From: Eledone cirrhosa
Taxonomy: Eukaryota
Length of the DNA stretch: 64,000 nucleotides
Reading direction: 5' to 3'
Assembly: GCA_964016885.1 (NCBI GenBank)
Contig: OZ024743.1
Coordinates: forward strand, 319,548,001 to 319,612,000
Part shown: positions 2,974 through 56,878 of the stretch, piece by piece
How the letters are laid out: the number at the start of each line of letters is the position of its first letter
Position numbering within the stretch: the stretch's first letter is position 1
Notes under the pieces: model-generated
Told to the model about the DNA's origin: nothing
The model's database searches: none
Seen by the model: the letters and a program-made list of their open reading frames with translations, nothing else
Made by a program: the position numbers and the translations under genes

Positions 2974-3482
2974 TAAATCTACCAAAATATACGGTAGTGT
3001 GCAATCCGTATGAAGAACTCAATGTAATCCAAATATCATGAAAAGAAAAGATGTATTCAAACATTTTTTCGATGAAAATCACAGGAAAACAGAGTCAAGA
3101 TAAATTAATAAAAACAATGAATAAAAACAAAGAAACAATTCCTTATATTAAAAAATTCATCATTTTACGATCGTTTCTGGGATATATATGTGTGTGTTGG
3201 TATGTATATCATATAGATCTATGTAAACATTTTACAAACTCTCAGAGGGAATATACATAACTATACATATATATGCTGTCTTCAGAAAAGTTTTTTCTGA
3301 AGACAGCATATATATATGCGTAGGTATGTATATTCCCTCTGACAGTTTGTAAAATTTTTACATAGATCTATATGATATACATACCAACACACACATATAT
3401 ATCCTAGAAACGATCGTAAAATGATGAATTTTTTAATATAAAGAACAGTTTCTTTGTTTTTATACATTGTATTTATTAATTT
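2974..3482. mobile_element. Short palindromic PLE-type insertion
   Basis: Arms 3101-3289 and 3293-3482, left-only extension 2974-3100, hammerhead cores, (TA)n flanks. Confidence 0.75.
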
Positions 3483-3526
3483 ATATATATATATATATAT
3501 ATATATATATATATATATATATATAT

Positions 3527-3786
3527 AATGTCGGAGGTGAGTTTTATTGTAGCACAATAAAGCAATGCAAATATCGGATAAGTACCACTTCACAGTTTGT
3601 ATGACTGGAATATAAATAATATAAGATCAAAAGATGGTTAAAAGAGTTCCAAGTATTTTATTATGCGCATTTCAAAAATAAATATCATCATGGGAAGATA
3701 TCTGCGTTCTCACCAGATAAAATAGGGAGACATGATATGAAGCTTAAAAAACACTTGTGAGCAGTGAAGTTTTAAATCAACATATG
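3527..3786 (-). mobile_element. PLE 3' end with tail (family of 6742-9540)
   Basis: Homologous to 9280-9540; hammerhead CTGGTGA...GAAAtgcgcaTA. Confidence 0.8.
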
Positions 3787-52347: not shown

Positions 52348-54848
52348 AATGAAAAATTGAACAGGGACAGAACAGAGAGGCAGTACGATAAATGTTTATT
52401 AAATTCACGCTCAGGAGAGTGGGGGATAGATGGGGGACGACGTTTCGGGCATAAGCCCTTCTTCAGGTGAGAAGTGTGTGGGAACAGAGTTCAAAAGGTG
52501 TGTAGGGGAGTGGTGGAGAGACATATAGCGAAAGGAAACGGTGCGAATGAAAAATTAACAAATGAAGACAAAAAATATAATAAATAAAAATAAAGCATGA
52601 TCAAAATACAAGGAAAGAGAAAATTTAAAAATAAAGGCATGATCAAAATAAACTGAAATTAAAAGGGGGGTAAACAGGTGGTGGAAGGGTGTGGGGTGAG
52701 TAGGGGTGGTGGCGGGTGGAGTGGGGAGAGGGAGACGGGTGTCCGAGCGGGGAGGGCTGAAGGTGGTGTGTGTGGTTAGGTGTGTGTGTGTGTGTGTGTG
52801 TGTGTGTATGTGAAAGTGAGGGTTGGGGGAAGAACGGGGTTGCATGTTCAGGAAGGTGTGTGTGGGGGGTGTTTTTGTGGGTCGGAGTGTCTGTGCGTGT
52901 GTGGATAGGGGGTGGGGGGAGAGGAATCAGGAGGCTGAGGGTGTAAATATGTGGTGGGAAGCACGTGTGTGTGGTTTAAGCGTGTTGTGGGTGTGGGTGG
53001 CGTGTGGATAAAAACATTTTTTGTTGGGGTGTGTGTGTGGGTGAGTTATATAGGTGATGGTGTAAGAGAATGGTTGAAAAGTTGGTAAGTTACACCGATG
53101 TTTGGAGATTTTGGTTAGAAGTCAAATTCGCGTGTGGGTAATCCAAGAAGCGGTGGTCGGAAGAGGAGAGATGTGGGATGCGCGCGCAACAGGAAGTGGT
53201 CAGCAGTGGGAGTGCTGTGGTCAGTTGGTGCTGAGAGGTGGTGGGAAGGGCATAGCAGCAGTCGGCGGAAGGTAGGGAGGCGAGGATGGGTAGGTGTGAG
53301 AGTTGGAGTGAGGAGGGTGTGTGTGTGTGTGTGTATTAGTAGGGGTGTTAGTGGGATGAGTGAGTGTGGAGCGGGGAGAGAAGGGTGTGTGTGGTTCTAT
53401 GGAGGGAGTGTGGTGTACTGGTGTGTGTGTAGTTTGGTGAAGAGGTGTTAGTGGGTGTTAGTATACGGGAGGTGGGGAGGGGTGGTATGAAGGTGTGAGT
53501 GGGGGTTAGTGGGGGTAGGGTGTGTAGAGGTGGTGGTGTACGAGGGTGTGTGGGTACGTGTGCGTGGGGTTGGAGGGTGTTAGTGATGTTAGTTGCGTGT
53601 GGGGTGGGTGGTGTAAGTGGGTGCGTGTGTGCGTGTGATAAGGAGGGGGGAGGAGGAGAAGAGGGGAGGGAAGGGATGTTAGTATGTTAGTTGGGGAAGG
53701 GTGGTCAGATGAGGGGTGGAGTGGAGGTGTTAGTATTGTTAGTGTGGGGTGGGCGGTGAAAAGGAGGGGTGTGTTAGTGGTGTTAGTGGGGGATAAGTGG
53801 GGGAGAGGGGGCGGTCGAACGCTAAAGGAATAAGGGTGGGGAGTTCAGGCCGGGGGGAGTGTGGGTCTGTAAGATGAAGATAGTGCGTTATTCGACCGTA
53901 AGGCGATGGGCGGGTGTTCCGTGGCACTGGAGTAGGCCACAGACTGTGAGATGGCGTGCGGTGTGTCCAGGGCCACCAAAGTGGCGGGCGATGGGGGAAC
54001 TGCCCCCGAGACGAATATCCCGGAGGTGCTCCGTGACTCGATCCGTCAGGCGACGTCCCGTCTGTCCGACATAAGTCGCGCTGCACTCCGTGCAACGAAG
54101 TCCGTAGACTAGGTTGGAGGAGGTGCAGCGGAAGGCATGCCGGACCGAGAGAGAGTGGCCGTTGGGACCCTGGAAGGTGGTGGTGTTGGTGATGTGGGGA
54201 CAGGTGTTGCAGCGGGGCCTAGAACAGGGGAAGGAACCGGGGGGGGGGGGGAGCGTGGGTTGGGGGGTAGGTAGCTGTGGACGAGGAGGGTGCGGAGATT
54301 GCGTGCGCGTTTGAAGGAGGGGAGTGGTGGGTTGGGAAGATGTGGGAGGTGGAGGGGTCGGACTGGAGGCGTCGGAAGAGGCGGCGGATGGTGCGGTGGA
54401 GGGGTAAGGTGGAGGGGTGGTAGGTGATGGGGAAGGGGAGACGGTGGGTGGGTGTGCGGTGGCGTGGGGTGAGGGTGGTGGAGCGGGGGATAGCACGGGT
54501 GCGGGTGAGAGCGGTGTAGACGAGAGAGGGGGGGTAACCTCTGCGGATGAAATGGCTGACTAGGGAAAGGGCCTGGGACTCGAAGTCAGCATCTCGGCTA
54601 CAGAGGCGGCGGATCCTGAGAAGTTGGGAGTAGGGAATGGAGAGTTTAGTGTGGGTGGGGTGGGAAGAGGTGAAGTCGAGGTAAGAGTGGGAGTCGGTGG
54701 GTTTGAAGAAGGCGGAGGTGACGAGGGAGTGGTGGGAGGGGTCGAAGGCGACGGAGATGTCCAAGAAGTGGACGTGGGTGGTGGAGATAGAGGTGGTGAA
54801 GTGGAGGGAGGGGTGGAAGGAGCAGAAGAAGGAGAGAAAGGAGTCGAG
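52348..54848 (-). mobile_element. Penelope-like element (Neptune-like), 5'-truncated: RT thumb, CxxxRCxxC linker, GIY-YIG, long 3' region with hammerhead
   Basis: HFLDI, KPTDSHSYLDFTSSHP, SIPYSQLLRIRRLCS, CSRPRCNTCPHI, NLVYGLRC, YVGQTGRRLTDRVTEH. Confidence 0.93.
52436..52470 (-). ncRNA. Hammerhead ribozyme of the Neptune-like PLE
   Basis: ac CTGAAGA a gggc-ttat-gccc GAAA cg TC gt. Confidence 0.78.
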
Positions 54849-54897
54849 CACACACACACACACACACACACATATATATATATATATATATATATAT

Positions 54898-56878
54898 ATT
54901 TCGTTTCTGAATTTGTTTAGCAAGATTCTTTATCTGAAAACGTGTGTTGAAACCGATATTGTTATACCTTGGGAGGGTCATGTTGCCAATAAGAAACACA
55001 AGCACCAGTTGCTTTCACTCCAAATTATTATAAATTAAATTATAAATTAAAAAATTTATAAATTTCTGGTTGGTTGGTTGGTTCCACAACCGGACGGTTG
55101 TTCATATATTGTCAAAGTTCTTTCGTCACACATTCTGTGACCTCTTCAGTGACAGGGATTATTTTCTTTATTTTGTGCCTCTCCTTTGTTCTGTCCGACG
55201 CCATCTTGTTTTTGTGTGTGTTGTGTGCTTAGTTTGTGCATGTGTTACATCCGGGTGTCTGTGTGTGTTTTTATTTGTATTTGTTTGTTTGTATTTGTTT
55301 ATTTGCTTGTATTTGCTTATCTATTTGTTTATTTACATGTTACTGTTTGGTTGTTTGTTCTATGTGTGTGTGTTTTCATTTTGTCCTTAATTGTAAGTTG
55401 TGATGTTGCTATTCCATTCATGTTTTCTATTTAATTTATGTTTATTGTCTCTGTGATTTGTCTAAACATTGCGTCTTTTCTGTGTGTAGATTTTATTTTT
55501 ATTTCTTTGTTCTCTAATTTACCCTTATGTTCTATTTTAGCATGTTGGTGGAGTACTGATGATTCTTTTCTATCTTGAAGTTCTCGCCAGTGTTCATTTA
55601 AGCTTTCTCCTATACTACGAGCTGTCTCACCTATGTACACTCTATTCTTATCTTTACATTGTCCTTCAGTACATCTTGTGCTATATACTATGTTTCTAGT
55701 TTTACAGTTAATATGGGGGCTTAGTTTACAGATTATGCATTCCTTATCTATACAGGGATGTCTTTGAAAAGGGTATGTATTGCTAATAAGTGTTTTTATG
55801 GAGGTACCTGGTCTTTCTACTATCTTAATATTTAGATTAAGTTAATCTAGGGCCCTTCTAAATTTGTAAGCTAGTTCACCTCTAGGGGTTGTATTGATGA
55901 ACATTACACTCTGGTATTTATTGCTATCATACCATGAATTTATTCTATTAACCTTATTCCTAGTTCTTTCTATTCTATTCCAAAATTTGCTCCTATACAA
56001 GGGGCAGGTCCCATTTGTATCATTATTTACCATTTTTCCCATTTGGTTCTGGCTCCTCTATATACTCTGATTTTATCTCTCTGATTGTAACCAGAGAACT
56101 GCAGACGGTAGATGAAGTGTTGTATGTGTCTCTCCAGTTCTTTGGGGTTGCACATGCGGGACACGTTTCTCATCACCCGTACCAAATCGGCAATCAGTAT
56201 GTTGATTTTGGTGTGATCCGAAACAGCTGAGTTTTGGTGGATCAGATATTTCGAAGTCATGGATTTGGCATAATGGGAATGGAGGATTTGTTTTTTGTTA
56301 TTAATGGTTTCTAACCAGAGCTCTGTGTCTAGTACAGGTAATCGATGGTTGAGGTGTTTGCTTGGGTAGTCTAGACAAATCACAGAGGCAATAAACATAA
56401 ATGAACTCCAACCAAAATTAAATAGAAAACATGAATGGAATAGCAACATCACAACTTACAATTAAGGACAAAATGAAAACACACACACACACATAGAATA
56501 AACAACCAACCAGTAACATGTAAATAAACAAATAAATAAACAAATACAAACAAACAAATACAAATAAAAACACACACAGACACTCAGATGTAACACATGC
56601 GCAAACTAAGCACACAACACACAAAAACAAGATGGCGTAGGACAGAACAAAGGAGAGGCACAAAACAAAGAAAAGAATCCCAGTCACTGAAGAGGTCACA
56701 TAATGTGTGACGAAAGAACTTTGACAATATATGAACAACCGTCCGTTTGTGGAACAACCAACCAACCGGAAATTTATAATTTTTTAAATTTATAATTTAA
56801 TTTATAATAAATTGGAGTGAAAGCATGGTGCGTGTGTTTCTTATTTGCAACATGACCCTCCCAAAGTATAACAATATA
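54898..56878 (-). mobile_element. Penelope-like element with inverted terminal copy
   Basis: RLPVLDTELW, HYAK, LQFSGY, YIGETARS...EH on the minus strand (55431-56372); 56417-56878 is an inverted copy of about 54956-55435. Confidence 0.9.

Follow-up and report, generated by a model that had tools for sequence, protein, structure and literature searches.

Penelope-like element insertions in (TA)n tracts of Eledone cirrhosa pair two fixed ends, suggesting twin target-primed reverse transcription

A 64,000-nucleotide (nt) stretch of the Eledone cirrhosa genome (contig OZ024743.1, here contig C4 of a 3.0-Gb genome), which we call the window, carries many insertions in (TA)n that consist of two outward-facing arms, one of which usually has extra sequence at its outer end. 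How do such head-to-head structures arise, and what sets their ends? We refer to the long outer end as L, to the short outer end as S, and to the stretch between S and L as the tail. Three window families (F1, F2 and F3), which by their motifs are Penelope-like elements (PLEs), were followed genome-wide by exact end patterns. Their insertions almost always combine one L with one S end, and given this near-strict pairing both cut target strands likely start copying at two fixed internal points. From the genomic sequence, we consider it probable that both target ends prime reverse transcription (twin target-primed reverse transcription) at two fixed internal sites, that copying runs off, and that the products are then end-joined.

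Outer ends lie at two fixed sites and are paired

Both ends could be classified for 139 two-armed insertions, of which 136 were L+S, 1 was L+L and 2 were S+S (binomial p ~1e-36 against a 50% expectation). The 139 leave out 7 pairs of high-scoring segments with one unclassifiable end as well as 127 unpaired or open-ended arms, and the loci were mostly picked by an exact match to the L or S end on contig C1, a choice biased towards young copies. In unselected blocks, 19 insertions were L+S and none was L+L or S+S. Dynamic programming on 180 short TA-to-TA segments returned 119 L+S, 55 single-armed and 6 same-end calls, 3 of the last being misclassified on inspection. Two F3 S+S palindromes, one within the 139 (L288/L289 and L294/L295 are the two), have mirrored flanks beyond their TA tracts and are probably secondary inverted duplications or an assembly effect.

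The positions of the ends were similarly sharp. TA-adjacent arm ends fell within ~5 nt of L or S in 228/238 cases for F1, 102/106 for F2 and 68/71 for F3, fractions enriched by anchoring, and in unselected blocks in 39/41, 18/18 and 7/8 cases, respectively. Thirty arms found by an internal core, scored by eye, comprised 11 that extended to L (one reading through), 18 that stopped at or ≤4 nt from S and 1 that ended elsewhere. Two sharp outer-end peaks, the check proposed in the initial annotation of this DNA, were therefore seen in all three families, in the anchored and the unselected sets alike.

The short ends usually lie on TA-like microhomology, and the sequence at both S and L is similar to the TA target. 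The L end of F1 is internal: 25 genomic copies read on through TAT into the leader of the open reading frame (ORF), so the F1 tail lies between two internal sites, as for the lizard PLE PAc Poseidon. No such L read-through was found for F2 or F3 within the sequence examined. The initial annotation had proposed that both cut strands prime reverse transcription, one at the RNA tail and the other at an internal TA-like site. The two end sites, the TA-like short end and arms resembling two independent complementary DNAs (cDNAs) are in line with this on genomic grounds; for F1, however, the long end is not an RNA 3' tail.

Both polarities occur among full-length copies. Among 20 F1 loci, an inverted S arm accompanied a direct L arm in 8 and an inverted L arm a direct S arm in 3, plus locus L121, the remaining 9 being one-armed, older or rearranged. 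The possibility that L comes from the upstream pseudo-long terminal repeat (pLTR) and S from the downstream pLTR was dropped, since 8 full-length copies end in L downstream.

F1, F2 and F3 carry Penelope-like ORFs

Stop-to-stop ORFs of 786 (F1), 863 (F2) and 821 aa (F3) contain reverse transcriptase (RT) and GIY-YIG motifs read by eye, and a homolog search returned 251 homologs at E≤1e-20. An F1 ORF lies at C1:11226207-11232031. Compared with Pfam, the F1 ORF and 3 of 4 ORF fragments from the window had no match, and the window ORF at 53888 had only a sub-threshold GIY-YIG match. ORF orientation indicates that the arms are head-to-head with their 3' ends outward. Links to RT/GIY-YIG ORFs were found for F1, F2, F2b, F3 and the families at 5693, 34875, 6221/17924 and 36095, bearing out the PLE identity given in the initial annotation for these families; no PLE ORF link was found for the families at 2974, 12747, 13643, 35253 and 48445.

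By motif content, F1 and F3 are of the Hydra type and F2 of the Neptune type; these labels rest on motifs, not on a tree, and the F2 linker feature is common to Neptune and Nematis. Translations of F1 and F3 show a single ORF with a C-terminal GIY-YIG, DKT and a CxCX5C linker; CCHH is absent, CxxC and CxH surround conserved E and N residues (by eye), and the RWK position reads RWR in F1 and RWT in F3. The F1 unit, at ~3,543 nt, departs from the under-3-kb tendency of Hydra. The F2 ORF (locus L106) has a CX4CxxC linker before a C-terminal GIY-YIG with CCHH-like residues. The endonuclease (EN) is C-terminal in F1-F3, unlike the Naiad/Chlamys type, which has an N-terminal EN and no hammerhead. 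The PLE layout of partial tandems (pLTR), an inverted truncated copy and a one-ended tail is present. In one side case, C1:91473195-91493780, pattern hits alone mark five F1 units in tandem with a period of ~3,543 nt, followed by an inverted copy.

A hammerhead motif scan gave matches in F3 and the 34875 family, and in F2 the motif was recognised by eye only. The F1 pLTR (locus L307; window 6012-6158) has a predicted type I hammerhead with a three-way junction and the variant core UUGANAA, represented by 46 natural copies. A U3:A8 hammerhead core can be active. Rfam showed no hammerhead among the 150 of 235 matches listed. The putative F1 RNA 5' end falls in the stem II loop, which would leave the 5' leader copy without half of the ribozyme and the 3' copy whole.

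Most arms of F1 and F3 stop at a common inner point

The inner (5') junctions had been thought to vary freely, a view that the counts contradict for two of the three families. F1 inner ends lay at S+52..62 in 50/76 S arms and 39/76 L arms, and F3 inner ends at S+160..171 in 13/17 S arms and 9/17 L arms; only those of F2 were more scattered, with a weak group at 240-265. Genome-wide, F1 gave 33,262 exact matches to S+52, 15,534 to S+58 and 2,360 to S+72 (the last two with patterns of equal length), and ~93% of the F1 arms that reach S+52 end by S+72. Summed contig depth in the public runs X1 and X3 fell ~20-fold across the F1 inner stop.

On the F1 sense strand, the inner stop coincides with T(T/C)AGTC at +1, kept across subfamilies, which we take to be similar to an initiator (Inr-like). 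The available literature places the start of PLE transcripts in the pLTR, and the common inner stop likely reflects run-off at the RNA 5' end. At 4 of 20 read-through loci (L306, L310, L315 and L316), a 5' piece of the F1 ORF is joined directly to S+55..57 of the pLTR, as expected if stalled cDNAs jumped templates. Hammerhead cleavage was rejected as the source of the inner end, as the predicted cuts (S+17 in F1, ~S+40 in F3) are not peaks.

We also considered that twin priming is correct and the fixed inner end is instead an RNA-structure stop or processing site. S+58 does lie in the loop of the conserved extended stem II of the hammerhead-like F1 fold, and conservation among F1 subfamilies does not extend to the TATA-like box at -29, a point that weighs against a transcription start. 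RT, however, passes stronger stems first, the predicted hammerhead cuts are not where ends accumulate, and PLE start sites within the pLTR are known from the available literature, leaving this version very improbable. At the weak F2 cluster near S+250 (window 9880-9895) we observed a AAAATGGCG motif, presumably YY1-like.

The two arms behave like independent cDNAs

Removing 8 inserts with a gap over 20 nt from the 119 L+S dynamic programming rows left 111 clean L+S inserts. The S arm reached >5 nt further into the element in 51, the L arm in 15, and the two were within 5 nt of each other in 45; in 18/111 the arms shared no sequence at all. The smallest L+S inserts were 35 and 43 nt, and truncation hazards per nt were 0.0033 for L and 0.0041 for S. 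Among short inserts, S was longer than L in 17 versus 5 young F1 cases, 6 versus 1 for F3 and 7 versus 1 for F2.

Junction microhomology averaged 1.6, 5.3 and 2.6 nt in the three families compared with 0.7, 1.2 and 0.9 nt for a shifted-join null (p = 1.5e-4, 3e-4 and 7e-3; n = 27, 9 and 8), the F2 mean being inflated by two internal palindromes. At 22/32 young F1 junctions there was ≤1 nt of microhomology or there were added bases. Both arms carried the same subfamily word in 41/47 inserts (shuffle mean 13), which fits one RNA or two alike and does not tell between them. The pLTR source of the inverted arm was similarly balanced, with 11 versus 9 informative substitutions at the 6 usable of 10 loci; at the other 4 the alignment overran the arm or a copy was missing. 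Few strand-switch joints were seen in contigs of the public runs. Taken together, the arms behave like two independent cDNAs, with the reservation that later central deletion could also give unequal arms.

That reservation leads to a fold-back origin, in which one target-primed cDNA copies itself into a hairpin, the endonuclease cuts a TA-like S or L site to integrate it, and later central deletions make the arms unequal. One L and one S end and variants shared between arms would follow naturally, full-length copies fit with no deletion at all, the resemblance of the S and L sites to the TA target suits such a cut, and palindromes are unstable, making central deletion plausible; in addition, the available text of PMC8557442 attributes the tail to EN-mediated resolution. 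Only L, however, can be the first strand in short inserts, and the excess of longer S arms in all three families would then require a one-sided deletion each time. The 18 inserts without a palindrome and the 22 young F1 junctions with little microhomology or added bases also speak against fold-back, as does the RT initiation at both tail boundaries reported in vitro in the accessible part of PMC11167929. On balance we regard fold-back as unlikely, though worth keeping in view. Far less probable is the self-priming of antisense RNA into head-to-head palindromic DNA that is then integrated; this is the published account of such PLE palindromes in the available text of PMC3846280, and it does not predict Inr-like inner ends on the sense strand, fixed L+S pairing or non-overlapping arms.

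A model of twin priming from two internal sites

In the twin-priming model, the GIY-YIG endonuclease would cut both (TA)n strands, as it does in vitro for another PLE. S would then be the priming site for one 3' end and L, 40-130 nt further 3', that for the other, each usually on a short TA-like match; the sites themselves are observed. The cDNAs would extend independently, most of them halting at the observed common point, which is probably the 5' end of the transcript. As the junctions show, the cDNA 3' ends meet bluntly, share 1-6 nt of microhomology or have a few extra bases between them, and each cDNA would subsequently template the second strand of the other, in an order that we infer. 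A minority may start from, or jump to, the 3' pLTR, yielding long, full-length or tandem arms. The simplest explanation for the rule of one L and one S would be a single dimeric particle whose RT sites sit at the two ends of the tail. For a lizard PLE, the accessible text of PMC11167929 reports that both strands are cut and extended in vitro and that two internal RT starts bound the tail.

Several observations weigh against this model. Only one arm was recognisable in 55/180 short TA-to-TA segments, and L-arm ends show none of the accumulation at S that might be expected if copying collided on a single RNA. A fold-back product could also give rise to unequal or non-overlapping arms after deletion of the palindrome centre, and full-length two-armed copies need not even that deletion. 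As described in the available part of PMC11167929, the start site is alike on both strands, which alone would not yield strict L+S pairing.

A stronger version, which we put forward tentatively and with more doubt than confidence, is that endonuclease-bearing (EN+) PLEs normally integrate by twin priming that is both obligate and programmed. A dimeric particle would grip the tail of one RNA, position an RT site at either tail boundary, prime both target ends and make two strong-stop cDNAs at the transcript 5' end. Joining of these cDNAs would produce palindromes of ~190-420 bp, whereas a jump to the 3' pLTR would yield full-length and tandem copies. If true, second-strand synthesis would need no separate primer, and the tail, the inverted pLTR and the tandems would be explained together in at least 2 clades. 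Any model now has to meet three quantitative rules, namely one L plus one S, independent arm lengths and a shared inner stop, and the question of PLE integration becomes directly testable by a biochemical assay.

Inventory of the window

Window sites were measured one by one for arm identity, extra nt and flank. The initial annotation had counted ~19 two-armed insertions in (TA)n from about a dozen families. All 19 listed sites have two outward-facing arms, and ~11 families are represented. Only 16 of the 19 are asymmetric palindromes, with 40-130 extra nt on one arm, as had been claimed, and the other arm flush with (TA)n; arm identity across the palindromes is 86-100%. At the three others, all F1 (14836, 35468 and 50451), the L arm is shorter than the tail and the arms have no common sequence, and at 12747 the long end adjoins another repeat instead of (TA)n. 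The claim that recurrent families reuse the same short end was upheld for F2/F2b (9601, 13274, 48942 and 56873) and for F1 (6158, 12680, 14836 and 50552). A twentieth case, 48445-48859, was absent from the original list.

2973..3481: asymmetric palindrome, 130-nt tail left; arms 3103-3289 and 3293-3481, identity 176/187; outer ends of other copies form two clusters; no link to a PLE ORF found
5693..5849: palindrome, ~90-nt tail left; arms 5785-5814 and 5819-5848; family linked to a Hydra-type ORF
5932..6158: F1 (Hydra-type) L+S, 80-nt tail left; arms 6012-6084 and 6086-6158
6221..6588: palindrome with ~40-nt tail on its left side; belongs with 17924 in one family, weakly linked to an F2-like ORF
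6743..9545: F3 (Hydra-type); S arm 6743-8126 including a 49-nt spacer, L arm 8127-9545 with ~90-nt tail; identity 1319/1322; ORF 3' end at 8103-7858 (minus strand); hammerhead motifs at 6843 (minus) and 9349 (plus)
9601..10215: F2 (Neptune-type); S arm on the left; on the right, the L arm and its 60-nt tail; identity 275/276
12491..12680: F1 L+S, 80-nt tail left; L arm reaches less far in than S arm
12747..12950: palindrome 12747-12866, tail right, into another repeat; 75% related to the 36095 family; no ORF link found
13274..13446: F2; short S arm (~32-36 nt) and L arm with 60-nt tail
13643..13759: small palindrome, 47-nt tail right; no PLE ORF link found
14836..14911: F1 S+L, non-palindromic; S arm 55 nt, L arm 27 nt, 5-nt microhomology
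17924..18656: palindrome with 41-nt tail on its right side; belongs with 6221 in one family
34875..35225: palindrome, ~90-nt tail left; hammerhead motifs at 35062 (minus) and 35127 (plus); family linked to Hydra-type ORFs
35253..35448: palindrome, 76-nt tail right; no convincing ORF link
35468..35588: F1 S+L, non-palindromic; S arm ~48 nt, L arm ~65 nt
36095..37621: 127-nt tail on the left side; a 1265-nt spacer separates arms 36222-36290 and 37556-37621; ORF link of the family is to an F1 ORF homolog
48445..48859: asymmetric palindrome, 131-nt extension right; no ORF link found
48942..50412: F2b; S arm 48942-49785, longer than the L arm and holding an ORF C-terminus (49780-49484, minus); L arm 49786-50412 with 59-nt tail
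50451..50552: F1 L+S, non-palindromic; L arm 45 nt, S arm 58 nt
54900..56873: F2; L arm 54900-56368 with 60-nt tail and an RT-thumb/GIY-YIG ORF remnant (minus); S arm 56369-56873

Tail-only or single-arm F3 pieces lie between TA tracts at 46349-46438 and 3528-3786, the latter, 259 nt long, stopping at the fixed F3 inner stop. The window also holds another GIY-YIG PLE copy (52352-54848, minus strand) with a broken ORF, weak similarity to F2 and no inverted arm in self-comparison; a Tc1/mariner-like transposon in (TA)n (50844-52118) with 30-nt terminal inverted repeats and a frameshifted transposase; a LINE-like (long interspersed nuclear element) sequence (23917-27318, minus) with two long ORFs, APE endonuclease and RT by eye; and two intronless gene-like ORFs, possibly retrocopies (28670-29263, minus, and 29393-30175, plus), which we take to resemble a tensin PTB domain and MAK16.

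Asymmetric palindromes are frequent at TA tracts

In a 1.06-Mb unselected sample of five contigs, which includes the window, asymmetric palindromes made up 64/673 TA-flanked segments, as against 2/269 CA/TG-flanked and 0/68 GA/TC-flanked segments; symmetric ones numbered 8/673 and 3/269 for TA and CA/TG flanks. Random segments gave 19/673 asymmetric palindromes, a control that we take to be contaminated, since such segments can land inside real palindromes. The 64 form 30 clusters, of which a few are false; most clusters have a family-specific tail length and an ATA/TAT-like motif just beyond the short end. A few of the 64 are not PLE-type, such as the Tc1-like element at 50844 and a microsatellite. 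Genome-wide, exact end matches numbered 28,049 (L) and 17,061 (S) for F1, 10,587 and 11,291 for F2 and 5,265 (S) for F3; reversed controls gave 0. The genome offers tens of thousands of countable PLE products along with young copies that have long open ORFs.

Could these be miniature inverted-repeat transposable elements (MITEs), DNA transposons with terminal inverted repeats, or fold-back artefacts of assembly or amplification? The TA target, the inverted arms and the 99.8% identity of the arms at 6743 would suit such a reading. Against this, the ends are asymmetric and family-specific, arms run into RT and GIY-YIG ORFs, many arms are only 86-95% identical, and non-palindromic L+S inserts occur. 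The symmetric, flush terminal inverted repeats of a Tc1/mariner MITE are not what was seen either, with 64 asymmetric and 8 symmetric TA-flanked segments. TA-joined L and S ends were also present in contigs of public runs X1, X3 and X4, and run X5, from a second organism, shows the L end; X1 and X3 represent one sample, possibly the source of the assembly. We find MITEs or artefacts scarcely credible overall, and for the PLE-linked families this reading is refuted; the families at 2974, 13643, 35253 and 48445 have no ORF link.

In the sampled sequence, PLE insertions supply roughly one hairpin-forming palindrome every 17 kb. Such palindromes are easily mistaken for MITEs or microRNA (miRNA) precursors, a concern for repeat annotation, and they may also bear on genome stability; an Rfam scan gave mostly miRNA-like hairpin matches below threshold among the 150 of 235 matches listed.

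Comparison with known systems

As far as the available text of PMC8557442 describes the Hydra clade, F1 and F3 share with it a single ORF, a C-terminal GIY-YIG, DKT, CxCX5C, CxxC, CxH, a hammerhead-like motif and the (TA)n target. They differ in having RW(R/T) in place of RWK, an F1 unit of 3.54 kb where Hydra elements are generally <3 kb, and tails of 80-90 nt. F2 shares with Neptune/Nematis PLEs the C-terminal GIY-YIG, the CX4CxxC linker, CCHH-like residues and a microsatellite bias, and differs in DKS versus DKG and in its 60-nt tail.

The canonical PLE layout likewise has an inverted 5'-truncated copy beside the pLTR, a one-ended tail and a junction palindrome (PMC8557442 Fig. 2; PMC3846280; PMC2377424, in their available text). 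There the tails are 30-40 bp and 'often' or 'optionally' present, whereas here they are 40-130 nt, with L+S pairing in 136/139 insertions and a fixed inner stop. Since the inverted truncated copy, one-ended tail and (TA)n target are already in print (PMC8557442 Fig. 2 legend; PMC3846280), the elements are new members of known clades and their layout is known. In the available text of PMC8557442, the origin of PLE tandem and inverted structures and of the one-sided tail is called undefined.

The in vitro work on PAc Poseidon (Frangieh et al. 2024, PMC11167929), so far as its accessible text goes, describes the same cutting and extension of both strands and two internal RT starts at the tail bounds, finds hammerhead cleavage dispensable and leaves later integration steps open. 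It reports no strand bias of the start and no target homology, and its main text does not apply the findings to inverted insertions; here, in contrast, the putative starts are paired and lie on TA-like microhomology.

What appears new here is the near-strict L+S pairing, the internal F1 L end, S arms that often reach further in or do not overlap L arms, the largely fixed inner ends and the enriched junction microhomology. A literature search, with supplements and much subscription literature outside it, found no paper on PLE twin priming, near-strict L+S pairing, non-overlapping arms or a shared inner stop. In LINE-1 twin priming, two target ends prime two cDNAs, and joining through microhomology produces an inversion; it is occasional, its second site is variable and its arms do not overlap. 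In the PLEs described here, by comparison, twin priming would be the rule, with both sites fixed and the arms overlapping.

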